A stretch of 64,000 nucleotides of DNA from Minisyncoccota bacterium (GCA_965222715.1 OZ244961.1:548637-612636); one strand, 5' to 3'. Counted from the stretch's first letter, positions 1,723 to 51,573 are shown. Numbers and translations: made by a program. Notes: generated by a model not told the origin, from the letters alone.

Positions 1723-1812
1723 ATAACGACTTTACTACTATTTCTTGACTTAGGGTTTTTAAAAACGTACCCTTACCTCAGAATTTGAACTTCTAGCAAA
1801 TGAAAGGAGTGG

Positions 1813-2694: not shown

Positions 2695-2700
2695 AAACCT

Positions 2701-2735
2701 CGCCCCAGCGTCTTTCGCTGGGGCGGTTTTATCTT
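2701..2735 (+). terminator. rho-independent terminator after thyA
   Basis: cgccccagcg-tctttc-gctggggcg stem-loop followed by gttttatctttc. Confidence 0.6.
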
Positions 2736-2764
2736 TCAAGCAAATACGCTATTGTGATAATGCT

Positions 2765-3226: not shown

Positions 3227-3241
3227 CCCCCCGTCCCAAAA

Positions 3242-4099: not shown

Positions 4100-4769
4100 G
4101 AGTCTCCTCGATTACTTTTTGAATGGCGTCAGAGACACCTTCAAGAGTTTCAAGCGCTTTCGAGACTTCAGGCGAAATTTTCTCGAGAACGTCCAGTCCG
4201 CCCTGCATAGTGAGTGTACGAACTCGAGCTGTTGTACTTGTCTCCGCCTGAGGAGGAAGGTTGACGATATGCTCACAAAAGCGTTTCATCTTGCTCGAAT
4301 CCGGCAGGTCTGAAGTAGACTCTGAGATGATTCGTACCTCATGAGGAATGAGGCAAAACAGTTGATCTGACTCATACTGAGGTACGATCACATCAACCGC
4401 TCGAAGGTGTCCGAGAACTCGAGCTCGTTCATCTTCCGGAACGACAGGACGACCATCACCTTTCCGCCGCCTGGTTAATTCGTCTGAATCGAACCCAACA
4501 ACGCAAATGACATGTTCGGCATCTGGGTAGAGTTCAGCTGTTTTGTTTTTCCCCAGCTGGATGTATTCAGCGTGACCGATGTGGAATAAATCCCAAACAC
4601 CAGTCACAAATGCGATGATACATCCGCTTGAGCGGAGATGATTGATAAGCAAGACAGCTTCTTCGTGATCGGGGAAATACCGATCTTCAAAAGTTGCTGT
4701 TCCTTTCATAATCCGCAAAGCTCGTGACTGTAGTCGATCAAGTTGCGGGGGTTGGTATCCTTCTTCCAT
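4086..4769 (-). CDS. cytidylyltransferase-like nucleotidyltransferase (RfaE domain-II-like)
   Basis: FVTGVWDLFHIGHAEY (GxFDxxHxGH) and KGDGRPVVPEDERARVLGHLRAVDVIV, closely resembling the heptose-1-P adenylyltransferase block [27 protein letters not shown]. 14-nt overlap with the upstream deaminase gene. Confidence 0.55.
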   Translation of the reverse strand: MEEGYQPPQLDRLQSRALRIMKGTATFEDRYFPDHEEAVLLINHLRSSGCIIAFVTGVWDLFHIGHAEYIQLGKNKTAELYPDAEHVICVVGFDSDELTRRRKGDGRPVVPEDERARVLGHLRAVDVIVPQYESDQLFCLIPHEVRIISESTSDLPDSSKMKRFCEHIVNLPPQAETSTTARVRTLTMQGGLDVLEKISPEVSKALETLEGVSDAIQKVIEETRDGS

Positions 4770-4901
4770 GACATAACTCCTTTCTCATGGATCTGTTTAT
4801 CTGATGGAACGATACCATAAAATAAAAAAGTGTAGTATTGACATACAGAGTTCTTGAGGTACGCTTCACTGGGAACAGAGAAACAGTATAAGGAGAGCGC
4901 C

Positions 4902-5456
4902 ATGCTCACCGTTTCTATCGTTGTAGCAATGACCCCGGATGGAGTTATCGGGGTCAATAATGAACTTCCTTGGCACCTTCCGGGCGATCTTTGGCGGTTT
5001 CGTGAAATTACTAAAGGAAAAGCGGTACTTATGGGTTGGAAAACTTTCCGCTCAATCCTTGACCAACGTGGTGAACCGTTGAAGAACGGTCGCACAAATC
5101 TTGTCCTCACCCAAGGTCACGCAAGCGAAGTCGACCAAGTGGGTGGATTGCCGATTGGTAATGTCCACGGATTACAAGAACACCTCAAACATAACCAGTA
5201 TATTGGTGGACTGTGTGTCATTGGTGGTGCAAACGTGTACCACCAAATGCTTCCGTATACTCATCACATCTACCGAACAGTTGTTAGCGCTAACCTCCAG
5301 GGGGATACATTATTCCCTGAAACAGATTGGGAAAATGACTGGCGCATAATTCACAAGTCACGAATGTGTATTCAGAACGTGCGCGACGAGTACCCGACTC
5401 AATTCCTCACATACGAACGTCTTCGAATACATGACACAAAACCCCTACTCGACTAG
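4902..5456 (+). CDS. folA: dihydrofolate reductase
   Basis: MLTVSIVVAMTPDGVIGVNNELPWHLPGDLWRFREIT, VIGGANVY and GDTLFP motifs. AAGGAGAG SD 6 nt upstream of the ATG at 4902; the track ORF starts 48 nt earlier. Confidence 0.8.
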   Translation: MLTVSIVVAMTPDGVIGVNNELPWHLPGDLWRFREITKGKAVLMGWKTFRSILDQRGEPLKNGRTNLVLTQGHASEVDQVGGLPIGNVHGLQEHLKHNQYIGGLCVIGGANVYHQMLPYTHHIYRTVVSANLQGDTLFPETDWENDWRIIHKSRMCIQNVRDEYPTQFLTYERLRIHDTKPLLD

Positions 5457-5472
5457 TGGAGTAGGGGTTTTT
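5441..5472. terminator. bidirectional terminator between folA and rplK
   Basis: cccctactc-gactagtg-gagtagggg flanked by aaaa and ttttt. Overlaps the folA stop codon. Confidence 0.55.
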
Positions 5473-5593
5473 ACTTTGTTAATAAAAAATAAACAGTATT
5501 ACTTCACGTCAATTCCTTACAGGAACAGTACACCTTGTCGATATTTCTTTTCAAGTATTCAAGAAATATCAGGCAAGGTCGATCGACGTTACA

Positions 5594-6019
5594 CTACTTC
5601 ACGTCGATCCCCATTGAGCGAGCGGTGCCTTCGATAATTTTTGCAGCCTGTTCAACGTCATCAGTGTTAAGGTCTTTCATTTTCTCTTCAGCAACTTCAC
5701 GCACTTGTGCTTTGGTAAGCGTACCAGCTTTGCTCACAATATTTTTTCCTGAACCCTTATCTTTTCCTAACTTCTTAAGAAGGAGCCGAGATGCTGGTGG
5801 AGTCTTTAAAATAAAATCAAAGGTGCGATCTTCATAGACAGTCATTTCAACAGGAATAATGTCATTCCCCATCTCGCGGGTCTGCTCATTAAACTGATTT
5901 ACGAATTCACCAATGTTAATACCTACTGGACCAAGCGCAGTACCAACAGGAGGCGCGGGTGATGCTTTCCCTGCTACAATCTGAAGCTTTAATTTTCGCA
6001 TTACTTTCTTTGCTGCCAT
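5594..6019 (-). CDS. rplK: 50S ribosomal protein L11
   Basis: MAAKKVMRKLKLQIVAGKASPAPPVGTALGPVGINIGEFVNQFN matches the L11 N-terminus. Confidence 0.9.
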   Translation of the reverse strand: MAAKKVMRKLKLQIVAGKASPAPPVGTALGPVGINIGEFVNQFNEQTREMGNDIIPVEMTVYEDRTFDFILKTPPASRLLLKKLGKDKGSGKNIVSKAGTLTKAQVREVAEEKMKDLNTDDVEQAAKIIEGTARSMGIDVK

Positions 6020-6038
6020 ATTAGTTGGTTTATTCTAC

Positions 6039-6584
6039 TTATATTTTCTTAACCTGCAAGAAGTCGAGCTCAACTGGTGTCTCGCGACCAAACATTGGTA
6101 CGAGCACCTTCACCTTGCCGCGATCTTCATCAACCTCCCCAATCTTCCCTTCAAGCTCCTTAAATGGCCCATCAACAATGGTAACCACATCATCAATACC
6201 GAGGTCGATTTTGTGCTTCACGGTATCTGAGTGCATTCGTGAGAAGAGTTCATCAATTTCTTTCTTAGTAAGTGGTACTGGCTTTGTGCCTGAGCCAACG
6301 AACCCAGTTACTCGTGGTGTGTTTCGAACCACATACCATGAGTCATCGGTCACCACCATATCAACGAGTACATACCCAGGGTAAATCTTTTCCTCTTCTT
6401 CAACACGCTTCCCTGCTTTAATCTTCACTTTCTTCTCAGTTGGAACGACCACATCAAAAATACGATCTTCCATGCCAAGCGACTCAATACGTTGTTTTAG
6501 GTTACGGGCAACTGCATTCTCATATCCTGCGTAGGTATGAATCGCGTACCAGTGACGCTGTGCGTTTCCTTCTTGCTTACTCAT
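6039..6584 (-). CDS. nusG: transcription termination/antitermination factor NusG
   Basis: WYAIHTYAGYENAV N-terminus (NGN domain) and C-terminal KOW-like GPFKELEGKIGEV. secE-nusG-rplK gene order. Confidence 0.85.
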   Translation of the reverse strand: MSKQEGNAQRHWYAIHTYAGYENAVARNLKQRIESLGMEDRIFDVVVPTEKKVKIKAGKRVEEEEKIYPGYVLVDMVVTDDSWYVVRNTPRVTGFVGSGTKPVPLTKKEIDELFSRMHSDTVKHKIDLGIDDVVTIVDGPFKELEGKIGEVDEDRGKVKVLVPMFGRETPVELDFLQVKKI

Positions 6585-6588
6585 AGGC

Positions 6589-6771
6589 TTAAATGAAAAA
6601 TCTATTTAGTATGCTGGTAAAAATAAAATCAAACAGTCCAAGTAGTCCTGCAATAACAAGTGAGATGACAATCACTAAAATTGTGAAAATAGTTGCTTGT
6701 TTAGTAGTCGGCCATGAGACGTGCTTGAACTCGCCACGGGTGTCTCGTAAGTATTGGATAAATCGTTTCAT
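6589..6771 (-). CDS. secE: preprotein translocase subunit SecE
   Basis: 60-aa single-TM protein immediately upstream of nusG. KHVSWPTTKQATIFTILVIVISL matches the SecE pattern. Confidence 0.8.
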   Translation of the reverse strand: MKRFIQYLRDTRGEFKHVSWPTTKQATIFTILVIVISLVIAGLLGLFDFIFTSILNRFFI

Positions 6772-6824
6772 ACCTTTTAAATAATGCTTCCCTAATTAAC
6801 CGTAAAATCGCCCTATTTAAAAAC

Positions 6825-6838
6825 CCCCGACGGGGGTC
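6825..6838 (-). terminator. second hairpin downstream of gene 6953-7496
   Basis: cccccg-acg-ggggg with an A-run on the plus strand (a U-run on the minus transcript). Confidence 0.4.
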
Positions 6839-6899
6839 TCTGGTATAGGAATGATAGCACAGCTACACAGAAAGTCAAAGTCACATTATAGAGAAAAGA

Positions 6900-6932
6900 T
6901 GAAGGGCGCCAGCGGTAGTCTGCTGGCGCCCT
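6900..6932 (-). terminator. rho-independent terminator of gene 6953-7496
   Basis: Perfect 11-bp GC stem agggcgccagc-ggtagtct-gctggcgccct; a U-rich tract follows on the minus-strand transcript. Confidence 0.55.
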
Positions 6933-6952
6933 TGTTTCGAGTACGTCGATGT

Positions 6953-7496
6953 TTACCGACGAATCCCGAACTGCGGTGCACGGATTTTGCCAACCGGCAG
7001 AAAACTGTCCGGGATCGGCGGCACATTCCCTGTCGCGACCGTGGTCGGAACCTTCCTCTTGGCCTTTGGCTGTTGGGAGCGATCGTCACCGTTTTTCTTC
7101 GACGACCTCTGACGGTTCGTCGTGTGCGTCGGTGCTTGGGAGAGCGGGCGACCAGTCTTGTTCTGACACCGCTTCCCTTTCACGGGTTCGCTTGTGCAGC
7201 GACCTTTCACCGAAACGGTCGGGGGATTGCCGCCCGTGTTCTTGTAGCGGAAAAGTGCGTTTCTTTCCTCGTCGGTTAACTCCGTATCACGAAGCTTGAT
7301 CAGCGACTCAGGGGTGAGACCGCAGATCTTGAAGAGAAAGATGAACGCTGCTTTCCGCTGGCGCACCCCCTTCGGGAGCTTCAGCTTATGCCGCGCGGCA
7401 AACGCGCGGCAGTCGGCGATTTTCGCATCCTTGAGCGGTGTTTGCCAGAAATTCTCGTCCGAAACGAGAGCTTGAAGTGCTTCGAATCCGGGCATT
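6953..7496 (-). CDS. hypothetical protein, GC-rich orphan with highly basic C-terminal tail
   Basis: ORF in a markedly GC-rich segment, which is why several overlapping ORFs are called on both strands here. Start assigned to the ATG at 7496, preceded by GAGGAGGG SD. The C-terminal 90 aa are R/K-rich (GRCTSEPVKGKRCQNKTGRPLS...KAKRK), suggesting nucleic-acid binding. Confidence 0.45.
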
Positions 7497-7622
7497 GAAC
7501 CCTCCTCATATATCTGTTTCAAGAGTCAGCCCATATAATACGGACCGGCTTTCTAATTAATATTTTAACATATTTTATACTATTGTCAAGTTATCTACTA
7601 TCCCCTAGTAAAGGTGTTAAGC

Positions 7623-11616: not shown

Positions 11617-11636
11617 TGGGTGCCTACCGAGAATCG
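11617..11636. repeat. echo of tRNA-His 3' end (T-loop to acceptor), direct repeat
   Basis: gggtgcctaccgagaatcg is identical to 11805-11823 inside tRNA-His, 168 bp downstream of the tRNA 3' end. Confidence 0.7.
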
Positions 11637-11803
11637 GGGTCAAGTTGCTAAATTCGCTAGGCTCATTAAGCACTTCCTCCCCGGACTCGGCGACAAGCCC
11701 GAGTTAACACTCGTCTTGTATACCGCCTCCGTCTTTCAATTCTCGTAAACACTGACACACAGTAAGACCCCAACACTTTCGTGTCAGGGCCTAACTGCAT
11801 GTT

Positions 11804-11877
11804 GGGTGCCTACCGAGAATCGAACTCGAATTTGAGGTTCCACAAACCTCCGTAATAACCGTTATACCATAGGCACC
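11804..11877 (-). tRNA. tRNA-His (GTG) with encoded G-1
   Basis: rc reads GGTGCCTATGGTATAACGGTTATTACGGAGGTTTGTGGAACCTCAAATTCGAGTTCGATTCTCGGTAGGCACCC. Anticodon loop TTGTGGA, G-1:C73 pair, cloverleaf stems check out. CCA not encoded. Confidence 0.8.
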
Positions 11878-11891: not shown

Positions 11892-11921
11892 ATAAACGCC
11901 AAGAGTACTCTTGGCGTTTAT
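11892..11921. repeat. 30-nt perfect palindrome (copy 1 of 2), probable bidirectional terminator
   Basis: ataaacgccaagagtactcttggcgtttat, identical to 47723-47752. Overlaps the stop codon of the PduO gene. Confidence 0.7.
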
Positions 11922-12475
11922 GTATAGCTTGGCGACTCCTCGACTATACCAGAAAGATGGTTCGTAAGTCGAGCGAGTGCATAGAGAAGTGATGAAAGTC
12001 GATTAAGGTATGCAAGCGACCACTCACCCATTTCTCGTTCACCACTTTCAACCACTTCAACTACTCGCCGCTCAGCACGACGCGAAAGTGTGCGTGCTAT
12101 ATCAAATCGAGAAGCTAATTCAGTACCTCCAGAAATAAAAAATGAAGTGATTGGTGGTAGTTCTTTTTCTGCTCCATGAATAAGGGCTTCTGCGTCACGT
12201 AGTTTCTGCTCATACAGAGTCTTATCAGCACCAGCAAGCTCAGCTTGAATAATAAAAAGATTTTCTTGAATCGTATGTACAATATGTTCAAATGATTGGC
12301 TGTTTAGAGAGAAGCCACTTTCAGCACTCGCCACTTTACACAACCCAAGAAATGAATTTACCTCATCAAGCGTACCGAGGGCTTCGGCAACGGGTGACGC
12401 CTTAGAGATACGCTTCCCTTTCTCTGTATCAAATACCTTTGTTGTTCCTTTGTCTCCTTTTCCTGTAAAGAGCAT
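11918..12475 (-). CDS. ATP:cob(I)alamin adenosyltransferase, PduO type
   Basis: MLFTGKGDKGTTKVFDTEKGKRISKASPVAEALGTLDEVNSFLGL matches the PduO/MMAB N-terminus (TxxGDxGxT...R..K.....E.xGxxDELNxxxG). Confidence 0.75.
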   Translation of the reverse strand: MLFTGKGDKGTTKVFDTEKGKRISKASPVAEALGTLDEVNSFLGLCKVASAESGFSLNSQSFEHIVHTIQENLFIIQAELAGADKTLYEQKLRDAEALIHGAEKELPPITSFFISGGTELASRFDIARTLSRRAERRVVEVVESGEREMGEWSLAYLNRLSSLLYALARLTNHLSGIVEESPSYT

Positions 12476-12482
12476 ATATTAA

Positions 12483-13310
12483 TTACCAGTGTACTTCATC
12501 ACACACATCGCACTTTTTAAACTCACTATGATCAACAAAGAAGATTGCAACCCACCGAGAGACATCATGAGCAACCTCTTTATTTAATTTTGGATCAACA
12601 ACATGAAGTGACGGTGCAAAATCAACATCTGTTATTTTGTACCAATTCAATCCAGGAAACATTTCTACCTCATCTTCGCGTGAGGTAACCGGTTTTAAGT
12701 CATCAAGCGAGTGACCAACCAAAAGTCCAGGACCGCTCTGCGCAACTGGAAGCGTGCACCCACCACTATCAAAATGCTCAGTTAAGTAAAGGTGTGTATC
12801 GGGGCTCGGTGCACTTGTTCCGTAGCGAATAAACCGAAGTGCTGAGTATGTTGGATATGGTGAATTATCTGTATAAATCTTACTACGAATATCAGGGTAT
12901 CCACTTTCAAGTACCTCAACAAAACCATTGAACATATCGCACGCCTCTTCATACATACGATGCATTGCTTGAAGCATTTCAGTTGCTTCAGGACCACCCT
13001 TACTCTCTTTCTGTAAACGATCTTTATATGTAGGGTTATACTGAAACCAATCAATATCAGCTGGCTTACTGTCGTAGACACTGTAATGTTTGAAACCAAC
13101 TTCATTACACTTATTCTCTCCTAACGGAACAGGAAGAGAGAATTTCTCCTTTACCTCAGCAGGAAGACGGGTGAACGCAATAAATGTTTCTGCAGTTCTA
13201 TCAATCACCCCATCACTAAATGAAAACGGAATACGCACGTACGCATCGTTCTTTAACTGCTCTTTTGCTTTTACTAACGTAAGCATATTATTCAAAAGTA
13301 TTTCCTGCAT
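12483..13310 (-). CDS. 2-oxoglutarate/Fe(II)-dependent oxygenase-like protein (split paralog)
   Basis: EHFDSGGCTLPVAQSGPGLLV (HxD...GG.L..Q..GLQV facial-triad block of IPNS/ACCO-type oxygenases), then HVVD... and HDVSRWVAIFF (distal His plus RxS-like). C-terminus CDVCDEVHW. Paralogous to the C-terminal half of 18705-19916. Confidence 0.55.
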   Translation of the reverse strand: MQEILLNNMLTLVKAKEQLKNDAYVRIPFSFSDGVIDRTAETFIAFTRLPAEVKEKFSLPVPLGENKCNEVGFKHYSVYDSKPADIDWFQYNPTYKDRLQKESKGGPEATEMLQAMHRMYEEACDMFNGFVEVLESGYPDIRSKIYTDNSPYPTYSALRFIRYGTSAPSPDTHLYLTEHFDSGGCTLPVAQSGPGLLVGHSLDDLKPVTSREDEVEMFPGLNWYKITDVDFAPSLHVVDPKLNKEVAHDVSRWVAIFFVDHSEFKKCDVCDEVHW

Positions 13311-13662
13311 CTCTCCACCCACGCAATCCTTCTCTGTAGCACGAGACGTTTGTATATCCTGAACGCGCTAAACACATTGCGGCCATGTATGAGAGTCCAC
13401 AACCAAGACTACCGGAGTATGTGGTGACATATACTTCTTTATTCTCACCAAACTTCTTTTTAAACTTTGAGAGAAATACTGTTTCAATGTCGAGTATTTT
13501 TCCATGCTCATCCTTTTCAGAATAATCTTTCTGGTACGATATATTCTCCGCACCAGGAATATGATGTGCATCATAACTCCCTTTTGAAAGCGTATCGACA
13601 ATAATATCGCCACGTGTAAGACGTTTTTTAAATTCTTCTGTGGTGATGATGTCGATATGCAT
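13288..13662 (-). CDS. single-domain rhodanese (sulfurtransferase)
   Basis: AHHIPGAENI and the active-site Cys loop VTTYSGSLGCGLSYMAAMCL. Overlaps the 5' end of the oxygenase gene by ~20 nt, suggesting an operon with coupled translation. Start at the internal Met MHIDII. Confidence 0.65.
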   Translation of the reverse strand: MHIDIITTEEFKKRLTRGDIIVDTLSKGSYDAHHIPGAENISYQKDYSEKDEHGKILDIETVFLSKFKKKFGENKEVYVTTYSGSLGCGLSYMAAMCLARSGYTNVSCYREGLRGWRDAGNTFE

Positions 13663-13734
13663 ATTGAAATGTATCCAGTAGTGTAGCATACAAAGAAAAA
13701 GCCGGAGTGTTCGAGAGAACACTCCGGCGCAGCG

Positions 13735-14556
13735 TTACCGATTCCACGGAATTACCTTTTTCTCCAAGACCCAGATGAGGATCCAGGTTGTGATCCCACA
13801 TAGAGCAAGGAGTACCGTCCCCGAGATAATCATAGAGACGATAGGAATCTGGTTTGCAGCATGAATGAGACTTCCAACCCCGTACTGCCTATTCACCCCC
13901 TCCGAAAGGACCAGCATCAGCCAGCACACAGGAGACGCGAGCAGAAGACCGAGAAACATTCGAGGCAGAAGCGCGGGCATGATATGCCAATACAACTGCC
14001 ACCTGCTCGGACCCATGATAGCAATGTCTGCCATCAGCTCTCGGGTGTGCCTATCTTTTCCATAGAAGAGCTTGTATGAGCCCTGGAACGATAGGAGGAG
14101 TTGGTAGAGGAACGTTGCCCATATGCTGATTCCGTACTTCGGCCCCTCGTCAATACCCAGCCAGATGATCATGAGATACAAGACTGAGATCTTTGAGAAC
14201 GTCAGAAGAAACGGGATGACCACAATTGCACAGAACCGCGCATACGGAAACAGAGCAATGAGGATACCCATCGGAAACCCAATAAGGGTTCCGAACACCA
14301 GCCCCACACCAACTCGCTTGAAGCTCGCGAAAAGATGTTCAGGTAGTTGACCCCGCTCAAGAAGACGCACGAAGTCACCATACATCTCTGACGGACTTGC
14401 AAACAAGGACGAAATTGCCCCTACATCTCTCCCCACTTGCCACGCATAAAGTAGCGCAGTCATAAGAAGAAGATAGAACGCAACCCCCAAAAGGATTGGG
14501 GGGTTCGGCCCGACTACATGTGCAATCGGGCCGTCATTTTTTTGTCGTACCCACAT
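13735..14556 (-). CDS. ABC transporter permease
   Basis: 6-TM protein with the EAA-like loop ELMADIAIMGPSRWQLYWHIMPALLP. Confidence 0.65.
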   Translation of the reverse strand: MWVRQKNDGPIAHVVGPNPPILLGVAFYLLLMTALLYAWQVGRDVGAISSLFASPSEMYGDFVRLLERGQLPEHLFASFKRVGVGLVFGTLIGFPMGILIALFPYARFCAIVVIPFLLTFSKISVLYLMIIWLGIDEGPKYGISIWATFLYQLLLSFQGSYKLFYGKDRHTRELMADIAIMGPSRWQLYWHIMPALLPRMFLGLLLASPVCWLMLVLSEGVNRQYGVGSLIHAANQIPIVSMIISGTVLLALCGITTWILIWVLEKKVIPWNR

Positions 14557-14629
14557 TACACACCTCCAGATGTTTCCTCATTGGAAAGAAAAAGAACAAA
14601 AGAGGTTCAGTAGAGCCCTCGCAAGAACG

Positions 14630-15673
14630 CTACTGAACCCGAATACCGCTTTCGTCAAAGACGTGTAGATGAGCTGGATCAATTGCAACCAGACACTCAC
14701 CAGAGAGTGGCGAGGCTGTGTGCGCTTCCATGGTTTCGCCCGAACGAAGCCGTAGTGAAACCTTGAAATGTGAACCAAAAAACCTACACGACTCAACTTG
14801 TGCAAGGATACCGGCCGAGTTATCCCGAGATACTTCTTGTACCGAGAGATGCTCTGGACGGATACCACACCACTTCGCTCCTTTCACGTTACCGATCTGG
14901 GAGAGTACCCCAAGAGGCACTGACGTCATGTCGCCAATAAATTCAGCGACAAAACGATCGTGTGGAGATTGGTAGAGTTCTTGATATGACCCGACCTGTC
15001 TCACTCGCCCACCATCCATGACCACGATGGAATCAGCCAACTCAGCTGCCTCCTCTTGGTTGTGGGTAACGTAGAGAATTGTCTGCCTGAGATCAGAGAA
15101 CAGCTCTTTAAGCAACACCCTGATTTCTTTTTGAAGTGGCTCATCAAGAAAGGTAAGTGGCTCATCAAGAAGAACTGCGCCAACCTGAGGAACCAGCACC
15201 TTTGCAGCAATACCCACTCGCTGACGTTCTCCTCCCGAAAGTTCTTTCGGATACTTATTGAGGAGGTGCGTGATGCCCACTTTTTGAGCAGCCTCACGCA
15301 CCACAGCAGTGCACACCTTTCCTGAAACATCAATCCCAGAAAAAACGAGCCACAGCTGTATATTCTTGAGGACCGTTAGATGATCCCATAGAGGAGTTGA
15401 CTGCGAAAGCAGACTCATGCTCCGTGTCTTGGGCGCTGTGTGAGTAACATCTCTGCCATCAATCAACACAGCGCCATTGGATGGCATTTGCAGCCCGGCA
15501 ATACTCCACAAAAGTGTTGTTTTGCCACACCCTGATGGGCCAAGGAGAACAGTTGTTTTTTTTGCTTCGATCGCAATTGAGACATCACGAACCGCGGTAA
15601 TGACTTCCTGCGTCGGACGGAACCACCGTCCACGTACAGGGAACGCAACCGAGAGGTTGCGCGTTTCAATGTG
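14630..15673 (-). CDS. ABC transporter ATP-binding protein with C-terminal TOBE-like domain
   Basis: Walker A GPSGCGKTT, signature LSGGERQRVGIA, Walker B LLDEP. The ~120-aa C-terminal extension resembles PotA/CysA/FbpC-type regulatory domains. Start at the internal Met MHIETRNL. Confidence 0.7.
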   Translation of the reverse strand, partial: HIETRNLSVAFPVRGRWFRPTQEVITAVRDVSIAIEAKKTTVLLGPSGCGKTTLLWSIAGLQMPSNGAVLIDGRDVTHTAPKTRSMSLLSQSTPLWDHLTVLKNIQLWLVFSGIDVSGKVCTAVVREAAQKVGITHLLNKYPKELSGGERQRVGIAAKVLVPQVGAVLLDEPLTFLDEPLQKEIRVLLKELFSDLRQTILYVTHNQEEAAELADSIVVMDGGRVRQVGSYQELYQSPHDRFVAEFIGDMTSVPLGVLSQIGNVKGAKWCGIRPEHLSVQEVSRDNSAGILAQVESCRFFGSHFKVSLRLRSGETMEAHTASPLSGECLVAIDPAHLHVFDESGIRVQ

Positions 15674-15834
15674 CATGGCGCACCTCCAAGTTACATGATT
15701 ACTAACTTCAGCTACTATAGATACTTTCAGTTTAATTGTCAAAAAATATTGAAAAGAAGACGTGACAAAAGAAAAACGCGCCGCTAGCTTCCTAGCGGCG
15801 CGTTGGTATCCTGACTCATTCTCGAGAGAATACC

Positions 15835-16959
15835 TTAGTTGCTCCGACTGAGGGCCCTGTCGGCAATCCGAAGGTTTTCGACACCTCCGACATAGACACC
15901 GTAGTCAGCCATAACCTCAGGGTCAGCCGTGCAGCCGCCCATATTGGTAACGATGCGATCGATCATCTCATCGATGGCCGGCTCGTACATTTCTCCATAC
16001 TTGTCGAGTGAAATGTAGAGCTCGTTCGCCAAAGCAGTGCGGAATTCGGGAACGAGACGTCGCTTCTTAATATCCTCAACTGCTCGCTGCATTCCCCGAC
16101 AGAACATGTCGGCCAGCTCCTCTCCACGTTCAGTTTCGTAGAAACTCGCCATCATGACGATTCCAGACTCGGGAAATGGGCGAAACTGATCCGAGTTAAG
16201 GATGACTGCGTAGCCTTCGGTTTGCGCACGGAGATGAAACGGCGCCGCAACAACCGCAAGGTCGGTTACTCCATCCTTCATGCCAGCGTAGCGCTTACCA
16301 GATGCACCGAGCTGTACTCCGTAGACCACGTTTTCTCCGTGATCAGGAACAGTACCAGCAGAAACTGCTTCTCGATACATTTCCCGAGTGCCACAGAAGA
16401 ATGCGACCGGCGCTTCGCCAGCAGCGTTGAGCTCCTGGTTTTTGTCGACAACGTAGGCGATCAGGATGCCAGTCGCTGTGTTACGCGACGTTTCTTGGTT
16501 GATGATCGCATGCTGACGCTCCGTAACATAGAGACCCGGCTCGCAGAGCGACACTGAGATCGATACATCGCGAAGGACATTCTCGACAGATCCGACCATG
16601 TAGAGCCCTCTTCCTTGAGGGCCAATTAGGACATAGTTGTGTCCTGTCGAGAGTACGCTGGTGAGAACACAGTCGTCACCGCCGACGATCGAACACCCGA
16701 AGACGCGCTCGATTGAATTCGAGGCGCGTGCCTGACCTGAATTGAGCGCAGCAAACTGCTGGCCGGCGTCAGAGATTTTGAGGATGGTGACTTCTTCGTC
16801 GAAGAAGTCATTTTTGGCGGCGTAGTCAGGGACAAATCCTGCAGTCCACCACGTGTCCCAGATGACATAGCCGATTTGATCATCAGCGTATGCTTTCGAG
16901 GGGAGTACCGCAATCATCGCAACCGCGATGACAACGGCAAGAGTGCGAAGCGTATGCAT
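15835..16959 (-). CDS. ABC transporter periplasmic substrate-binding protein
   Basis: N-terminal signal peptide MHTLRTLAVVIAVAMIAVLPSKAYA, ~370 aa, directly downstream of the ATPase and permease. Subfamily not assignable by eye. Confidence 0.55.
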   Translation of the reverse strand: MHTLRTLAVVIAVAMIAVLPSKAYADDQIGYVIWDTWWTAGFVPDYAAKNDFFDEEVTILKISDAGQQFAALNSGQARASNSIERVFGCSIVGGDDCVLTSVLSTGHNYVLIGPQGRGLYMVGSVENVLRDVSISVSLCEPGLYVTERQHAIINQETSRNTATGILIAYVVDKNQELNAAGEAPVAFFCGTREMYREAVSAGTVPDHGENVVYGVQLGASGKRYAGMKDGVTDLAVVAAPFHLRAQTEGYAVILNSDQFRPFPESGIVMMASFYETERGEELADMFCRGMQRAVEDIKKRRLVPEFRTALANELYISLDKYGEMYEPAIDEMIDRIVTNMGGCTADPEVMADYGVYVGGVENLRIADRALSRSN

Positions 16960-17095
16960 AACGTACCTCTCTTTCTTTTCTGAATGTTACGGATTCTGCT
17001 TCAAACTAATCCAAAACGATAGTAGCATATACTCACAGTTGCGCAAGAAAAAGACCCGCAAGTAGCTAGCTTGCGGGTCGTTAAAGAGCATACGG

Positions 17096-18589
17096 CTAAA
17101 ACGCAGTAACCCCACGATTAGCCCATCTGCCAGGATCCATATGGTGACATAGTTTCCGTTGCCACGAGACCAACTCATTAATGCTTAAGTGGTCGGTTCG
17201 CATGGTTGGGGTGAACTTTGTAACCAAACTTGAATGCGGATCATCGGGCATTAAACCAGAGCGCTTGTACGCGTCGGTGAGAGGTATCCCGGGGAACGGA
17301 ATCAGTACTGTTGGATTTATTGAGAGACGAACTTCAGGATTTTCTTTTTGAAGAGTCCTCTTTAATTCCGCAAGTGCCTCATCAAGCCGGCTCAAAGATT
17401 CGTGAGAGTCTTCTCGCAGTCCGATAATGACCCCAAAAAGAAGGTCTGGCGCACCAGAGCGAACGATCGCTTTGCACATCTCAACGACACCTCTCCAGTG
17501 CATCAGCTTTTGATAACGCTCAGTTCCCTCAAGTGGTCGCTCAAGTGGAATAAACGCCTGGATGCATTGTTCTCCGTAGACCGCCTGAACCAGCTCCACG
17601 TCCGGAGTCAGATCGCTCTCTTCTCTAATACGGAGGGTGCGATCGATACTGACCCCTTTGGTGAGTTTTGAGATTTCGATGCCGTTACGAAACATCCACG
17701 ACAACCCCCTTTCACGGAACTGTCGCATCGTCTCGAACACAACATCACGACCCCCCTCCCAAAGCAGACGTCCGAGAAACTGGTCGGACATGGTGTTTAC
17801 CGTACGTGCACCAGAGAGACACTGAAGCTCGAGCCACCGCCCCACAACATCAGGAGACATGTAGCTGTAGGAAAGTCCGTACGGGCCATTTCGACGAGTC
17901 ATACAGAAGTCACACGCCTGATCACATCCATAATCGAGCACCAAACTGGTGAATGGAAAGCGATCTTGAGGTAGTGTGTCACGCCACCGATTCTCGAGAA
18001 GTCCACGCACTTGTTCGACTGAAGGAAGTTGCCAGTTGTTTGGAGTGAGTCTCCATGAACCAGCGACCACCTGACCAACGCCTTGTATGTGTGCGCGAAT
18101 CGGTTTCTCAGTTGAACCAGTGAGAGCGATCTCAATTGCACCAGCATTACTTCCGCCACTTTTATCAAGCACAACAACTGTGGCTCCTGCTTGCAGGTAC
18201 CTCTCAGGTTGTGCAATGGCATCAGTTCCACCGACTACGACTTTTTTATTATTTTTTGAGAGAAACTCGATGACCCACAGGACAATCGCCTGCTCCATAT
18301 GAAAATTCGACGTAATACCAAACACGTCGAACTGATCAAGTGGAATGTCTTCAAGTCTCTTGCCTAAGGCAATTGGGTGAAGCTTCTTACCATTCCAAGA
18401 AACCGAATCAAACGCGTGGACGTGGGTACCGTCACGCATACTGAAACGAGTCACAGAATGACCAGCTGCTTCAAGCGACCCAATAAGCGCCTGTGGAGTC
18501 GACCCAATGAGAATTGAGTCTGTAAAGTTTTTTCCTTCATCGTCACGTAAAAGTGCGACGGGAGTCTGAATGAGACATATGTGCGCCAT
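17096..18589 (-). CDS. cobalamin-binding radical SAM enzyme (class B)
   Basis: N-terminal Rossmann-like B12-binding region (ICLIQTP...VVVGGTDAIAQPE), then the radical-SAM cluster motif LDYGCDQACDFCMTRR (CxxxCxxC). The track ORF extends to 18622. Confidence 0.6.
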   Translation of the reverse strand: MAHICLIQTPVALLRDDEGKNFTDSILIGSTPQALIGSLEAAGHSVTRFSMRDGTHVHAFDSVSWNGKKLHPIALGKRLEDIPLDQFDVFGITSNFHMEQAIVLWVIEFLSKNNKKVVVGGTDAIAQPERYLQAGATVVVLDKSGGSNAGAIEIALTGSTEKPIRAHIQGVGQVVAGSWRLTPNNWQLPSVEQVRGLLENRWRDTLPQDRFPFTSLVLDYGCDQACDFCMTRRNGPYGLSYSYMSPDVVGRWLELQCLSGARTVNTMSDQFLGRLLWEGGRDVVFETMRQFRERGLSWMFRNGIEISKLTKGVSIDRTLRIREESDLTPDVELVQAVYGEQCIQAFIPLERPLEGTERYQKLMHWRGVVEMCKAIVRSGAPDLLFGVIIGLREDSHESLSRLDEALAELKRTLQKENPEVRLSINPTVLIPFPGIPLTDAYKRSGLMPDDPHSSLVTKFTPTMRTDHLSINELVSWQRKLCHHMDPGRWANRGVTAF

Positions 18590-18704
18590 TTTTTCACCTC
18601 CTTCCTGAGGATATTCTGGCATATATCTAATATGTTAGTGTAGATGAAACAAATAACGTGTCAATAAAAAAGCGGCGCCACTGGCGCCGCTTGAGTTTCC
18701 GGTA

Positions 18705-19916
18705 CTAGAATCGCACCGAATGAGTGTCACCGCAGATAGTGCAGTAACCCTCATGGTAGTGTGTGGCCAAAAAGACGATGGACCAGCGCGCAACATCCTC
18801 ATCAAGTCCATCAAACGGACACTGGAGGACATCGTGCCATTGGGGCACCATCGACGAGTGGGTCACACGAAAGAGCTCGAGTGCAGGAAAGATGAACGGT
18901 TCATACGGAGCGCCTTCTTTTGGAAAGTGAAGGTTTTCGTCAGAAGAACCGAATCGGAACCCTTGAGCGTTTTCTCCGAGCATAATGTCCCAACTACCTG
19001 GGTCGAAGTGTGGACGACAGAGTGACATCTTCCCAGTTCTCGGGTCAACATCTGCGTAGGGGTACCTGAAGAAAGAGACGGACGAGCGCGACTTCTTTCC
19101 TTCCGGGAAGAAGGTATTCACAAGGTTGGGAAAAGTAGCACTCATTGTCTCGATCACATCCCTAAATGCACACTCTGCATCTTCGTACAGTACCCGGGCG
19201 GCTTCCGCAAATGCTTGAGCTTCGGGATACTGCTCCATCTCAGAAGCAAAGACCTCTTCAAACCCAGGTCCGTACATGAATTGGGCCTGTGTTGGACGAC
19301 CCATTTCTTTTTGTGGGACTGAGCGAAACCCAATCTCTTCACAGAGATGAGAGGGAGCTGATCCTTCAGGCAAGACAAAAGATTGCATCACTTCGATCGG
19401 CAGCTGAAGAAACTCAACAAACGCTTCTCCGGCCCTCGTTGCGTTTTGAGGGTTGCCCAGTTGAACGGGCGCGCAACCTTCCTCAAGAATCGCTTGAGTA
19501 ACAGGGTCGTTCACCAGGAGATCTGATTCGGGAAGGAGGAAGTTTGCAGATGGAGGAGTAATCTCTCCACCAGCCAAAATCCATCCGCGAACCCCATCAG
19601 TGACCTGAATCACGTCTTCGTACCCATGTTCAAGAAGCGCAAAGGCAGCCATATAGGCAAGCCCGCACCCAGACTGCTCTGAGAACACGAAGATTCGAGC
19701 GCTCTTCGGTACGTTAAGCAGCATGAAACGTTCCATGAAAGAGTTTCTGCTGCTTCCCTTGAAAATGGAGCCGTACCAGACATTGTGCGCACCAGGAATA
19801 TGGTGCGCACGGAAGGCAGATTCTCGACTGGCGTCGATAATGACATCAGAGTCTTTTACATCGGCAAGAACCGATTGTGCAGACCACGTCTTTGGCGTAA
19901 CCGGTGCTGTAGTCAT
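18705..19916 (-). CDS. fusion protein: N-terminal rhodanese + C-terminal 2OG/Fe(II)-oxygenase-like domain
   Basis: Rhodanese part AHHIPGAHNV...IFVFSEQSGCGLAYMAAFALLEHGYEDV...GVRGW, near-identical in pattern to the 13288-13662 rhodanese. Oxygenase part RPHFDPG (HxD) ... HDVLQCPFDGLDEDVARWSIVF (H-x10-RxS spacing as in ACC oxidase), C-terminus CTICGDTH. Confidence 0.6.
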   Translation of the reverse strand: MTTAPVTPKTWSAQSVLADVKDSDVIIDASRESAFRAHHIPGAHNVWYGSIFKGSSRNSFMERFMLLNVPKSARIFVFSEQSGCGLAYMAAFALLEHGYEDVIQVTDGVRGWILAGGEITPPSANFLLPESDLLVNDPVTQAILEEGCAPVQLGNPQNATRAGEAFVEFLQLPIEVMQSFVLPEGSAPSHLCEEIGFRSVPQKEMGRPTQAQFMYGPGFEEVFASEMEQYPEAQAFAEAARVLYEDAECAFRDVIETMSATFPNLVNTFFPEGKKSRSSVSFFRYPYADVDPRTGKMSLCRPHFDPGSWDIMLGENAQGFRFGSSDENLHFPKEGAPYEPFIFPALELFRVTHSSMVPQWHDVLQCPFDGLDEDVARWSIVFLATHYHEGYCTICGDTHSVRF

Positions 19917-20084
19917 GTGTAAACCTCTTTTTCATCTAGTTATTGCACATAGTAGCATCGCACCTCTAACCAAGAGTATTGATGCTTCTATTTCTAAAAA
20001 CCAGTATCTTGTTATTTTGTATAAAAGTCAATTACACCAGCCACATTGCGAAAGCGTCTATGCAGTGGCATCATACACACTACT

Positions 20085-20882
20085 ATGGAGATAGATTCCT
20101 CACACCCATACACACTCATTGAAAACATACGTAACGAGAAACACGCGACGTTATATAAGGACCTTTGGGGTGACACAACATATACTCACCTCATGGATGT
20201 CCCCCAACTTCACTGGAAAGATTTAGTAATGTGCCCTTTTAAAAAACGATTGTATCGAGATGATAATCATTTTGTACATATTGCATACAAAGATGATGAG
20301 GCCTGTCTTATCGCAAGAACAACAAAAGATATTGTCCACGAACTATATGGAGATACGAGTAAAAAAAGACCACTTGTAGCATTTCATTACCGACACCACA
20401 CAATAGAAAAAAGTGAGTGGTTTTATGAACACAATCTATTACCCCTTCCTGCTATTGATGACCTACATGCAGCAGTTGAAATTGCACGAATGTATGAAGT
20501 AGATACCCTCACCTGTGACACCCGTAGTCTCATGCAACTACAAACACATTTGCATAAACTACCCCTCACATCTGTGTACGTGGTAGATACTTTTTTTGAT
20601 GAAGAGGTAATAAAAAATATCTCTTCAAAATACGAAATAAGACTAATACTTGCACTTCCAGAAACTGGAACATTGGCGGTAAGTTGTCCAGAGAATACTC
20701 CAGGAAGCTATTTTCACCCCCACCACTCTACCATCCTTGAATATGGAAAATCACTTATAGCAACACGAAATGTATTGCTTCCAACACCAATTATTCGCTA
20801 CAACACTGGTATACCAACACAGAAAATTCAGGAAAGTATCTGTAGCTGCAACAGTAAAGAAACATTTACACTTCATGCATAA
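20085..20882 (+). CDS. PaaK/F390-synthetase-like paralog lacking the P-loop (hypothetical)
   Basis: C-terminal LLPTPIIRYNTGI...CSCNSKETFTLHA parallels YRTGDKGEL...CECGEKKTLIFHG of the downstream gene. No SGGTSG motif. Confidence 0.4.
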   Translation: MEIDSSHPYTLIENIRNEKHATLYKDLWGDTTYTHLMDVPQLHWKDLVMCPFKKRLYRDDNHFVHIAYKDDEACLIARTTKDIVHELYGDTSKKRPLVAFHYRHHTIEKSEWFYEHNLLPLPAIDDLHAAVEIARMYEVDTLTCDTRSLMQLQTHLHKLPLTSVYVVDTFFDEEVIKNISSKYEIRLILALPETGTLAVSCPENTPGSYFHPHHSTILEYGKSLIATRNVLLPTPIIRYNTGIPTQKIQESICSCNSKETFTLHA

Positions 20883-22011
20883 AGTAATATGTACAACAAA
20901 AAAAGATATTGAAGGGACTATTGTTGGATTGGATCAATATAAGCCAGGAGATGCGTCAGTAAAAGACCTCACACTTAAAGTAAGTGGTGGCACAAGCGGC
21001 GTACTTACTGTAGTTGTTGAGCAAAATGCAGTTGAGAGAAAGAAGAGACATTACACAGACAAAGCTCATGCACTCATACGACTTGGTGGGCAACGTACAA
21101 GCGCACTATCTGGCACGAATTTACTACTTCGTTACGCATCACACACTCGAGTACTTGCAATTGATGCAAAAGATTTGAGGCACCCAGCAATTGGCCACGC
21201 ATTAGCTGGGTTTGCCCCAACCGAACTCTATAGCATCCCGCTCTCTTTTTTAAGGACTGTTATGTACACACTGCGATTACACGATATGTCGTGGGCATTT
21301 CGTCGTGTGCGTTACATTCTATACTCAGGAGAATGGACAAGCGCAAAAGAAAAAGAAGAGATTCTTAAAGATTTTCCTAAACTTGAAGAAAGTGTTGATG
21401 AGTATGGATCAGCTGAGGCTGGACCGTATGCTGTGAGTTGTAAACATTTATCAAAAAAATATGAAAAAGAAGGACTCTTAGTATTTCATCCACACGAATC
21501 TGTTGGCTTATGGATTGATGGAGACAAAGGAGGTGGTGAAATTATTATATCTACTAATGAATTAAAAAATTACAGAACGGGAGATAAAGGAGAATTGAGA
21601 GAAGAGAAATGTGAATGCGGAGAAAAGAAGACATTAATATTTCATGGTCGCATCAATACCGATTACGTAGATTGTGCCGGTGCTATTTTTTCTATTAAAG
21701 ACCTCGAGCATGTCTTTAATTATTTATCAGATATTGTTTCCGACTACCAAATTATAGTGAGAGAACATATTGAAAACAAAACACCAAAAGGAAGTGTACA
21801 TATAAAGTTTGTACCAACAAGGGCGTATAAGAATCATTCAGATGTAACTACGTATGTTACTGAATTTGTACACAAACATCTTGCTGTAACCCCAACACGT
21901 ACACTTGGCGAGCTGGTTGAGCAAAAGATATTTACCCCAACAACAGCAGAAATAGTTTCTTCAATCTCAAAAAAGACTGATAAACGTGAAAGAATAAAGA
22001 AAGAAATTTAA
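20875..22011 (+). CDS. adenylate-forming enzyme, phenylacetate-CoA ligase (PaaK)/coenzyme F390 synthetase family
   Basis: VSGGTSGVLTVV (SGGTSGxP-type P-loop), YGSAEAGPYAVSC, YRTGDKGEL and GRINTDYVDCAGAIF blocks as in PaaK. Start ATG at 20875 overlaps the upstream stop (ATGCATAA), i.e. translational coupling. Confidence 0.55.
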   Translation: MHKVICTTKKDIEGTIVGLDQYKPGDASVKDLTLKVSGGTSGVLTVVVEQNAVERKKRHYTDKAHALIRLGGQRTSALSGTNLLLRYASHTRVLAIDAKDLRHPAIGHALAGFAPTELYSIPLSFLRTVMYTLRLHDMSWAFRRVRYILYSGEWTSAKEKEEILKDFPKLEESVDEYGSAEAGPYAVSCKHLSKKYEKEGLLVFHPHESVGLWIDGDKGGGEIIISTNELKNYRTGDKGELREEKCECGEKKTLIFHGRINTDYVDCAGAIFSIKDLEHVFNYLSDIVSDYQIIVREHIENKTPKGSVHIKFVPTRAYKNHSDVTTYVTEFVHKHLAVTPTRTLGELVEQKIFTPTTAEIVSSISKKTDKRERIKKEI

Positions 22012-22083: not shown

Positions 22084-22168
22084 TGGTGCCCAGGGCGGGA
22101 CTCGAACCCGCATGCACTAAGTGCCACGGCCCTCAACCGTGTGTGTATACCAGTTCCACCACCTGGGC
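22084..22168 (-). tRNA. tRNA-Leu (GAG), type II with long variable arm, CCA encoded
   Basis: rc reads GCCCAGGTGGTGGAACTGGTATACACACACGGTTGAGGGCCGTGGCACTTAGTGCATGCGGGTTCGAGTCCCGCCCTGGGCACCA. Anticodon loop TTGAGGG. Confidence 0.8.
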
Positions 22169-50990: not shown

Positions 50991-51005
50991 AACAACATAT
51001 TGTAC

Positions 51006-51464: not shown

Positions 51465-51532
51465 AAAGCTATTTTAGCATGCTCGCCCAAACACTGCTTT
51501 CTGTAATTTTTACTAGCATACACAAAAGAAAA

Positions 51533-51560: not shown

Positions 51561-51573
51561 TGGGGAGGTAGAG

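Follow-up and report, generated by a model that had tools for sequence, protein, structure and literature searches.

The ten genes lying between two tRNA genes in the window (the whole stretch of 64,000 nucleotides that was analysed) raise the question of whether they form a functional unit and, if so, on what kind of compound this unit might act. The host is a tiny-genome, Patescibacteria-type bacterium. The original prediction saw here a GC-rich block of ~10 kb with no textbook counterpart, and the literature that we searched for the cluster indeed gave no published description. All ten claimed ORFs were present where they had been placed, and the tRNA-His and tRNA-Leu genes proposed as borders were found, one on either side:

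11804..11876, minus strand: tRNA-His(GTG), left flank of the block
11918..12475, minus strand: PduO-type ATP:cob(I)alamin adenosyltransferase (PF01923 at 2e-42; TIGR00636)
12483..13286, minus strand: oxyB, predicted IPNS-like oxygenase of Fe(II)/2OG type, not fused, with a CxxCxxxH tail at its C-terminus
13288..13662, minus strand: rhdB, single-domain rhodanese with catalytic Cys (PF00581 at 4e-13)
13701..13728, minus strand: strong hairpin plus T-run directly 3' of the permease stop (12-bp stem, 8 GC pairs)
13735..14556, minus strand: ABC importer permease of putative NitT/TauT type (TauC/SsuC-like by NCBIfam, below cutoffs)
14630..15673, minus strand: ABC ATPase with a C-terminal TOBE domain (ABC_tran 3e-27, TOBE_2 5e-8)
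15835..16959, minus strand: predicted secreted substrate-binding protein, SBP (signal peptide read by eye, ...AYA/DD)
17096..18589, minus strand: radical SAM enzyme, Rossmann-like domain at the N-terminus, architecture similar to AprD4/class B
18705..19916, minus strand: fusion of an N-terminal rhodanese and a predicted C-terminal IPNS-like oxygenase that ends in a CxxCxxxH tail
20046..20882, plus strand: PaaK1, truncated P-loop-less paralog of an adenylating enzyme, divergent from the fusion gene
20875..22011, plus strand: PaaK2, predicted PaaK/ANL-type adenylate-forming enzyme (SGGTSG, YGSAEAG and YRTGD motifs)
22084..22168, minus strand: tRNA-Leu(GAG), right flank of the block

Composition and recurrence of the block

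The predicted GC enrichment holds for five of the ten genes. Elevated GC is confined to 13.7-19.9 kb, that is, to the permease, ATPase, SBP, radical SAM and fusion genes (GC 0.49-0.54, GC3 0.46-0.59), whereas PduO, oxyB, rhdB and both PaaK genes have a host-like GC3 of 0.25-0.35. The cluster is a mosaic of two GC3 classes with five genes each, and the hairpin at 13701..13728 forms the low-coordinate border of the GC-rich cassette. Composition z-scores of the GC-rich part against the window are only 1.2-2.5, because GC is raised in further patches elsewhere in the window. The proposed acquisition at tRNA loci was not borne out: a Pfam search of the ten block ORFs of at least 130 aa gave no integrase, no tRNA-Leu-derived repeat was found, no tRNA repeat bounds the block, and the composition shift concerns half of the genes only. 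The 3' end of tRNA-His recurs as a 20-nt copy at 11617-11636, outside the block and beyond the tRNA gene as seen from it, and seven tRNA genes are spread over the whole 64 kb.

The locus might still be no functional unit at all, being instead a recent GC-rich island at a tRNA hotspot that came by chance to lie beside unrelated genes, as the raised GC3 of five contiguous genes, the flanking tRNA genes and the nearby tRNA-His copy would allow. However the lack of an integrase, the position of that copy across the tRNA from the block and the density of tRNA genes throughout the window argue against such an origin, and three further assemblies of Patescibacteria type carry the gene set and its order, with 30-59% identity:

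L001+L007: PaaK pair, fusion, importer, then rhodanese and oxygenase
L002/L003: PaaK pair, fusion, radical SAM enzyme, S9 peptidase, importer
L014: PaaK1, radical SAM enzyme, NMT1-like SBP, asparaginase-like gene, second radical SAM enzyme, ATPase, permease, PaaK2

This conserved synteny largely refutes the chance island, which we regard as very improbable, and the gene set is, as had been supposed, more than a fortuitous juxtaposition. Conservation could partly reflect common ancestry; all instances come from few related uncultured lineages. The constant core, found in all four genomes, consists of five genes, the PaaK pair and the ABC importer. The variable part comprises the radical SAM enzyme (three of four genomes) and one or two rhodanese-oxygenase modules (also three of four), L014 having no rhodanese and no oxygenase, while PduO in our genome, the S9 peptidase in L002 and the asparaginase-like protein in L014 are lineage-specific extras. 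Between L001 and L002, identity falls from 64-68% in the PaaK genes to 28-38% in the genes of the fusion and the importer.

Concerning transcription, four strong terminator-like hairpins lie between the minus strand genes, so that their co-transcription is not assured. Spacing is tight between rhdB and oxyB (1 nt), between oxyB and the downstream PduO gene (7 nt), and at PaaK1/PaaK2, which overlap by 8 nt.

The ligase pair and the importer

Within the cluster, conservation is highest for PaaK2 (54-59% identity to L001/L002, 32% to L014), whose start at 20875 matches exactly a deposited protein of 378 aa. It is like phenylacetate-CoA ligase (PaaK, ANL) in its P-loop, YGxxE and YRTGD motifs; three orthologs all carry SGGTSG, YGSAEAG and YRTGD unchanged, and the ortholog profile matched the phenylacetate-CoA ligases 9s3l (2.4e-8) and 4r1l (1e-4) in the PDB. 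However PaaK2 gave no Pfam AMP-binding match, its best NCBIfam match, the DVU_1553 family, scored 24 bits where the cutoff is 300, and its pairing with a truncated P-loop-less paralog is foreign to PaaK. This paralog, PaaK1, lacks the C-terminal domain as well as the P-loop, gave no Pfam, NCBIfam or PDB match and is weakly related to PaaK2 (BLASTP E 6e-6; hhalign probability 27%); its conserved counterparts in L001, L002 and L014 are 37-49% identical to it. The tandem, translationally coupled PaaK pair of the original prediction stands as regards the identity of PaaK2 and the overlap, which makes coupling plausible, but not as regards PaaK1, which is a truncated protein.

In the importer, the best NCBIfam matches of the permease are TauC (2e-15) and SsuC (1.5e-14), which score 54-57 bits where the cutoffs are near 345, and the protein is 45% and 43% identical to its L001 and L002 orthologs. 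The ATPase, correctly described as TOBE-type, matched both ABC_tran and TOBE_2, its family assignment being a generic ABC plus TOBE one; alignment with the L001 ortholog places the likely start at Met24 (15673), the longest ORF extending to 15742. The SBP had no Pfam match and retrieved only itself among 5.8 billion clusters; it has orthologs in L001 (40% identity) and L002 (30%), and a homolog in L014 (23% over 179 aa, E 1e-7) that scores 27 bits for NMT1/THI5, above the cutoff of 20.5. The system is like TauABC, SsuABC and ThiXYZ in its TauC/SsuC-like permease, separate SBP and the NMT1/THI5 match of the L014 homolog, and unlike them in its scores far under the equivalog cutoffs, the TOBE domain on the ATPase and the window SBP without a detectable family.

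From these genes one could also picture a small biosynthetic cluster making a secreted or cell-bound natural product, e.g. a modified amino acid or short peptide, with the ligase for amide-bond formation, the radical SAM enzyme and oxygenases for tailoring and the ABC system for precursor supply. PaaK2 gave weak matches to BagE/FevW and FlxY, models of amide-forming enzymes, one relative of the radical SAM enzyme heads an NRPS cluster, and related loci carry the S9 peptidase and an asparaginase-like amidohydrolase. We nevertheless judge this scheme unlikely as a whole: the intergenic gaps (73-135 nt) are too short for a precursor-peptide ORF, the block holds no exporter, carrier protein or condensation enzyme, and the ABC system has the features of an importer, with SBP and TOBE ATPase.

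The rhodanese-oxygenase modules

The rhodanese identities were confirmed, both domains lying above the Pfam gathering cutoff of PF00581 (50.0 and 35.5 bits vs 22.2). The active-site loop of rhdB is CGLSYMA and that of the fusion, with Cys84, is CGLAYMA (PF00581 at 1.4e-8); the two are paralogs (33% identity, E 3e-16), and rhdB is 54% identical to the L007 rhodanese. For rhdB, Met21 (13662) is the likely start within a longest ORF that extends to 13722. The oxygenases are likewise paralogous, oxyB being 26% identical to the C-terminal half of the fusion (E 4e-25) and 47-49% to P0019 of L007. The module is thus duplicated as had been proposed, one copy split and one fused, the fusion having just two matches in the 5.8-billion-cluster database. 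The reported overlap of the oxyB 5' end with the rhodanese is probably an artefact of the longest ORF, which extends to 13322: the likely start, Met13 at 13286, begins 1 nt past the rhodanese stop, exactly as in the L007 ortholog locus.

A confident model and profile searches predict that both oxygenase halves have an IPNS/thymine-hydroxylase-type Fe(II)/2OG fold, in agreement with the original assignment and not with an unrelated fold. The AF2 model of the fusion has a pLDDT of 82, rising above 90 over the oxygenase domain (residues 140-390), and its top 50 Foldseek matches are all T7H, IPNS, EFE and H6H-like (E 2e-9 to 2e-8, probability 1.0). The family profile matched 3oox and T7H in the PDB at about 1e-11 (7e-12), the identity of the window oxygenases to any solved structure being only 13-18%. 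The iron facial triad (H183, D185 and H240 in oxyB numbering) is invariant in 62 aligned family members and aligns with the triads of 3oox and T7H; R256, over the same 62 members, and Y167 are also invariant. It should be noted, however, that neither window oxygenase alone reaches the Pfam gathering score (oxyB: E 0.11, 13 bits vs 23); the best Pfam E-value among the three A1 sequences was 0.0019, and 25 of the 62 family members matched at E <0.01. The Ser of the RxS motif occurs in the fusion copies only (RWS/RLS), oxyB having RWV and most of the family RWA. IPNS retains RxS without using 2OG, so that sequence does not decide whether 2OG is the co-substrate.

Both oxygenases end in C-x-x-C-x-x-x-H as described, and this tail is present in all five rhodanese-linked copies and in none of 146 other family representatives. 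The rhodanese-linked oxygenases form a subclade of their own, of which this invariant tail is the mark. With the IPNS/T7H/EFE clade (PF03171 plus DIOX_N) they share the predicted double-stranded beta-helix, the HxD...H triad, the RxS arginine and the conserved Tyr; they differ by the tail, the fused or adjacent rhodanese and the sub-gathering Pfam score.

A sulfur role in the cluster is plausible. In persulfide dioxygenase-rhodanese fusions of the PRF/CstB type, a non-heme iron, O2-using enzyme is physically joined to a rhodanese with an active-site Cys, which captures or passes on sulfur species. The window module, in which a predicted non-heme-iron oxygenase is coupled to a Cys-bearing rhodanese, is similar in this respect, but by Foldseek its oxygenase is a 2OG-type jelly-roll, whereas that of PRF/CstB has the metallo-beta-lactamase (ETHE1) fold. 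The catalytic Cys is present in four of five rhodanese copies, the L002 ortholog having Asn. The suggested oxidative chemistry on a persulfide stays conjectural: because L002 lacks both this Cys and a second module, and L014 lacks rhodanese and oxygenase, sulfur transfer is not essential to the core function.

These modules also bear on organosulfur scavenging, in analogy to TauABC/TauD: a sulfonate or other organosulfur compound would be imported, the oxygenase would cleave its C-S bond and the rhodanese would take up or hand on the released sulfur species. The coupling of oxygenase and Cys-bearing rhodanese would fit, as would TauC and SsuC being the best family matches of the permease and the L014 SBP homolog matching NMT1/THI5, the SBP type of NitT/TauT transporters. 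However the oxygenase falls in the IPNS/T7H clade and not in the TauD/TfdA clade, the permease is far below the equivalog cutoff (57 vs 342 bits), no role is left for the ever-present PaaK pair or the radical SAM enzyme, and L014 retains importer and ligases without oxygenase or rhodanese. Such scavenging seems to us improbable.

The radical SAM enzyme and a possible pathway

The radical SAM enzyme had been described as cobalamin-binding. Its radical SAM core stood: starting at Met12, as in the deposited protein of 497 aa, it has a single CX3CX2C motif whose cysteines (C233, C237, C240) are invariant in 16 homologs, and all 16 family members matched Pfam Radical_SAM (best 1.3e-8). The B12 part found no support in Pfam. 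The B12-binding domain PF02310 was below cutoff in the window enzyme (E 0.19) and reached E 0.08 or weaker in three of the 16 homologs. The N-terminal Rossmann-like domain is positioned as in class B enzymes, and the best structural match is AprD4, a radical SAM 1,2-diol dehydratase and also the sole NCBIfam match (E 0.0098, 14.8 bits vs a cutoff of 500). AprD4 does not bind B12, and the fold alone is insufficient for cobalamin binding (PMC12931638). The window enzyme differs from AprD4 and class B enzymes, with which it shares just 13-15% identity, and its distant relatives keep other genomic company, in small-molecule contexts such as NRPS, EgtD/EgtB, N-methyltransferases and betaine transporters.

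The cluster might instead be centred on cobalamin, its key catalyst being a radical SAM enzyme dependent on B12, for which PduO would supply adenosylcobalamin or handle cob(I)alamin. The identity of PduO is secure, at 140 bits vs 108.45 for the curated TIGR00636 and 145.5 bits vs 24 for PF01923; no ortholog was found in L001, L002, L003, L007 or L014. Its membership of the cluster is doubtful because it is specific to this genome, and to a cobalamin-centred function we give little probability.

Several observations count against the pathway that we propose below. The SBP is an orphan sequence; four terminator-like hairpins, a Cys-less L002 fusion and an L014 locus devoid of rhodanese and oxygenase have been described above, as has the sub-gathering Pfam score of each window oxygenase; and the predicted O2-/2OG-dependent chemistry would adjoin an oxygen-sensitive radical SAM enzyme in a Patescibacteria-type organism.

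The reading that we prefer is an import-activate-tailor pathway. The binding protein would capture an external carboxylate-bearing compound, the PaaK2/PaaK1 pair would adenylate its carboxylate, and the radical SAM enzyme and the oxygenases would modify it, while the rhodanese Cys and the Cys-rich tail may supply the iron site with sulfur (or with a second metal) or retain it there. In favour of this reading are the domain identities, the conserved core with its variable surroundings, the co-occurrence of tail and rhodanese link, the tight gene spacing, the mosaic make-up of the cluster and the small-molecule contexts in which distant relatives of the radical SAM enzyme lie.

The block is a very rare cluster of ten genes in which known enzyme families are combined in a new way, with two copies of a hitherto undescribed pairing of a rhodanese and a predicted iron oxygenase. 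In this genome the cassette of fusion, radical SAM enzyme and importer differs from the ligase pair in composition and, on our reading, in history; it resembles a cassette that can be exchanged to alter specificity more than a segment of an island targeted to tRNA genes. With somewhat less than even confidence, we propose that the whole is a modular cluster restricted to Patescibacteria, which would import, activate and tailor a small metabolite.

Setting, composition and borders of the cluster

The bacterium from which the window derives has a small genome, and its proteins are on record on one 617,472-bp contig. Around the block lie housekeeping genes typical of Patescibacteria/CPR (encoding L19, pseudouridine synthase, UppS, PilM, PilB, PolA and RuvB), together with those for an aminoacyl-tRNA synthetase, PBP1, DnaN and SET and NUDIX proteins. 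As predicted, ten ORFs are found between tRNA-His (11804-11876) and tRNA-Leu (22084-22168): on the - strand PduO, the stand-alone oxygenase oxyB, the single-domain rhodanese rhdB, the importer genes (permease, ATPase and binding protein SBP), the radical SAM enzyme rSAM and the rhodanese-oxygenase fusion, and on the + strand PaaK1 and PaaK2. Both rhodanese domains score above the Pfam cutoff, and the ATPase is of the TOBE type, carrying ABC_tran and TOBE_2 domains. Gene starts were refined using orthologs and deposited proteins, as follows.

Likely refined gene starts
20875, + strand: PaaK2; the exact 378-aa protein is deposited, and the gene overlaps PaaK1 by 8 nt
18589, - strand: rSAM, from the deposited 497-aa protein
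15673, - strand: ATPase, from alignment with its ortholog in the related locus L001
13662, - strand: rhdB, at Met21
13286, - strand: oxyB, 1 nt past the rhdB stop, with identical spacing in the related locus L007

Given the rhdB and oxyB starts, the overlap of rhodanese and oxygenase genes that had been reported is probably an artefact of taking the longest ORF.

The original prediction also regarded the whole block as GC-rich and as probably acquired at tRNA loci. The first claim holds for the five genes at 13.7-19.9 kb (permease, ATPase, SBP, rSAM and fusion; GC 0.49-0.54, GC3 0.46-0.59), but not for PduO, oxyB, rhdB, PaaK1 and PaaK2, whose GC3 of 0.25-0.35 is that of the flanking genes. The z-scores of the GC-rich genes are only 1.2-2.5 against all 62 other ORFs of the window, and GC-elevated patches (0.44-0.49) occur also at 1800-7500 and 51000-52000, where GC3 stands at 0.45-0.68 in several ORFs, some of them possibly called on the wrong strand. 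Elsewhere, GC falls sharply to 0.27 at 60000-62000, around dnaN (60668-61771, GC3 0.14), which is adjoined by a 450-aa ORF (61999-63351); this is probably the chromosomal replication origin region.

Transfer RNA genes are dense in the window (7 per 64 kb). No integrase was found within the block, nor any repeat of the tRNA-Leu 3' end. The tRNA-His 3' end (11803-11822) has one exact 20-nt direct repeat at 11617-11636, 186 bp downstream of the tRNA, away from the cluster and in the 5' portion of the longest NUDIX ORF; it resembles an att-type scar left by an earlier integration or excision. Since the integrase is absent, the repeats are absent or on the wrong side and the GC shift is partial, acquisition at the tRNA loci is not supported.

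Strong, GC-rich hairpins followed by T-runs were located at four sites, so that they punctuate the GC-rich cassette at the level of single genes.

Hairpins with T-runs
13701-13728, - strand: after the permease gene
15775-15804, - strand: after the SBP gene
17053-17079, - strand: after the rSAM gene
18670-18692, - strand: after the fusion gene

Promoter-like TTGACA sites follow two of the four (15742-15714 and 18664-18637); the promoter scan as a whole gave 15 sites where 15.3 are expected by chance, that is, no excess.

Recurrence in other assemblies and mosaic history

The cluster was found in only three other assemblies, making four with the window genome.

Related loci
L001 and L007 (two contigs of Paceibacterota NORP311, which probably abut): PaaK pair; fusion-SBP-ATPase-permease, with no rSAM between fusion and SBP; then rhodanese-oxygenase
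L002 (MAG labelled Saccharibacteria): PaaK pair; fusion-rSAM-S9 peptidase-SBP-ATPase-permease; no second module
L003 (JGI metagenome contig): gene set identical to that of L002
L014 (metagenome contig): PaaK1-rSAM-SBP-asparaginase-like-rSAM2-ATPase-permease ... PaaK2, without rhodanese or oxygenase

This conserved synteny largely refutes the reading of the cluster as a chance juxtaposition of genes, and the gene content of the loci defines the PaaK pair and the importer as its core. Scanning with PaaK2 returned only two assemblies among GTDB genomes, both already known, and no match among metagenomes.

Downstream of the cluster, L002 (13177-16266) and L007 (1174-4268) have in common two paralogous Cys-rich proteins (406/408 and 328/327 aa, 73-84% identical across genomes) with an apparent N-terminal hydrophobic segment, and two small genes (150/149 and 139/139 aa); none of these proteins matches a Pfam family. 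A 564/585-aa protein past PaaK2 is common to L001 and L002. The window has no counterpart of any of these accessory genes.

Comparison of L001 with L002 gives 64-68% identity for the PaaK genes, but only 28-38% for fusion, SBP, ATPase and permease; the importer genes of the window are nearer to those of L001 (40-45%) than those of L002 are. This contrast and the step in GC3 within the window suggest that the fusion-(rSAM)-importer cassette may have been exchanged between lineages or may be evolving much faster than the ligase pair.

Enzymes of the cluster

The prediction of a duplicated rhodanese-oxygenase module is borne out: the fusion shares 26% identity with oxyB over its C-terminal half (E 4e-25) and 33% with rhdB over its N-terminal domain (E 3e-16), and both oxygenase copies end in C-x-x-C-x-x-x-H. 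Searched singly, the window oxygenases fall below the Pfam gathering score. An exhaustive profile search collected about 308 family representatives, most of which stand alone and measure about 270 aa; one of them is named 'isopenicillin N synthase-like dioxygenase' in IMG. In an alignment of 62 sequences G76, Y167, H183, D185, H240 and R256 are invariant, which includes the HxD...H triad and the Arg of the RxS motif; PF03171 is matched by 25 of these 62 members and DIOX_N by 11. The family profile matches 3oox (7e-12), thymine dioxygenase (2e-11) and then AdaV, H6H and ACC oxidase in the PDB. The AF2 model of the fusion (mean pLDDT 82, above 90 over the oxygenase domain) retrieves T7H, IPNS, EFE and relatives with Foldseek (E about 1e-9, probability 1.0). 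Profile, model and structure search thus support the proposed 2OG/Fe(II)-oxygenase fold; sequence alone does not settle which co-substrate is used.

The CxxCxxxH tail, of low confidence in the AF2 model, is present in all five rhodanese-linked copies (oxyB, the fusion, the L007 oxygenase P0019, the L002 fusion ortholog P0020 and a further copy, P0002) and in none of 146 other family representatives. No other observation points as strongly as this complete match to rhodanese and oxygenase working together. In P0020 (L002 4872-6101) Asn replaces the rhodanese catalytic Cys (loop GNKVGQM), while the oxygenase triad and the tail are kept, and the L002 genome is without a second rhodanese-oxygenase module. 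Among 5.8 billion clusters the fusion protein retrieved only itself and one ortholog. Three loci of stand-alone members (L008, L092 and L093) have unrelated housekeeping neighbourhoods that give no functional clue.

Concerning rSAM, proposed to be a B12-radical-SAM enzyme, the radical SAM part stands: CX3CX2C is present as the one cluster motif, with no conserved Cys elsewhere. Against the Pfam B12-binding domain it gives no significant match. The fold matches after AprD4 are MgmA (22.7), TsrM (20.9) and CysS (20.7), all three cobalamin-dependent, then RimO, MiaB, TokK and OxsB. AprD4 possesses a Rossmann-related domain, yet does not bind cobalamin (PMC12931638). Cobalamin is therefore a candidate cofactor of rSAM. 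The PduO assignment is unambiguous, as predicted (PF01923, 2e-42; TIGR00636 above cutoff), and no counterpart of PduO was found in any related locus. A B12-centred pathway is a less favoured rival reading of the cluster. A methylthiotransferase function for rSAM was rejected because the N-terminal domain has no conserved Cys and MiaB and RimO rank lower among the fold matches.

Relatives of rSAM, 33-41% identical to the window enzyme, were collected from 78 metagenome loci (L014-L091; for example L060 10001-12660, L052, L063 and L030), only L014 having the cluster partners beside them. Recurrent neighbours are EgtD (PF10017, 3e-117), EgtB-like proteins, a 465-aa double N-methyltransferase, OpuAC-permease fusions (betaine-type transporters) with their ATPase, a KamA-like radical SAM protein, a DMSP-lyase-like cupin and a 464-aa protein with a PP-loop-like CGGGKDS motif. 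Paralogs often stand in tandem, two to six together, and one relative heads an NRPS cluster. Surroundings of this kind assign the family to small-molecule chemistry, of amino acids or betaines, without naming the reaction. The literature searched gives no description of the association with EgtD and EgtB. A small biosynthetic cluster is another rival reading of the window genes; a RiPP pathway was rejected, there being no space for a precursor ORF.

The tandem PaaK-like pair holds for PaaK2, which has the ANL motifs, overlaps its partner by the 8 nt already listed and whose ortholog profile matches phenylacetate-CoA ligase structures at 2.4e-8; PaaK1 is a truncated, weakly related paralog without the P-loop. 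The importer bears on a further rival, organosulfur scavenging by the logic of TauABC/TauD: the permease is TauC/SsuC-like, with scores far under the equivalog cutoffs. The SBP, with a signal peptide predicted by eye, is an orphan sequence whose sole match among 5.8 billion clusters is itself, and its homolog in L014 matches NMT1/THI5.

Proposed pathway and significance

The best supported reading, at somewhat less than even confidence, is that the cluster encodes a modular pathway which imports, activates and tailors a metabolite, probably carboxylate-bearing; its rhodanese-oxygenase modules would serve as tailoring units that a genome may lack. We infer that rhodanese and tail may deliver sulfur, a role weakened by the Cys-less L002 ortholog and the oxygenase-free L014 variant. 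A more far-reaching proposal, which we consider improbable, is that the tailed, rhodanese-coupled Fe(II)/2OG-type oxygenases represent iron enzymes of a new class, which form C-S bonds by inserting sulfur and take that sulfur from the rhodanese persulfide and not from cysteine, so that the cluster would convert an imported precursor into a metabolite or cofactor of thiol or thio-acid type. For this proposal, the presence of EgtD and EgtB beside distant rSAM relatives in other bacteria hints at a link to thiohistidine or betaine-type chemistry.

All domains of the cluster belong to known superfamilies; the literature searched describes neither the cluster nor the architecture of a rhodanese with a tailed, IPNS-like oxygenase, and both appear undescribed. 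Their importance is limited by rarity, the four assemblies being the only ones. That the fusion-importer cassette appears exchangeable while the ligase pair beside it is stable suggests that substrate specificity has been diversifying. The metabolism of Patescibacteria is thought to be minimal, largely anaerobic and based on scavenging. For this group, a conserved cluster in which an importer, adenylating and radical SAM enzymes occur with O2-type iron oxygenases tied to a sulfur-carrier domain would represent unexpected small-molecule chemistry, and the rhodanese joined to an IPNS-like oxygenase with a diagnostic Cys/His tail is a well-defined, testable enzyme target.
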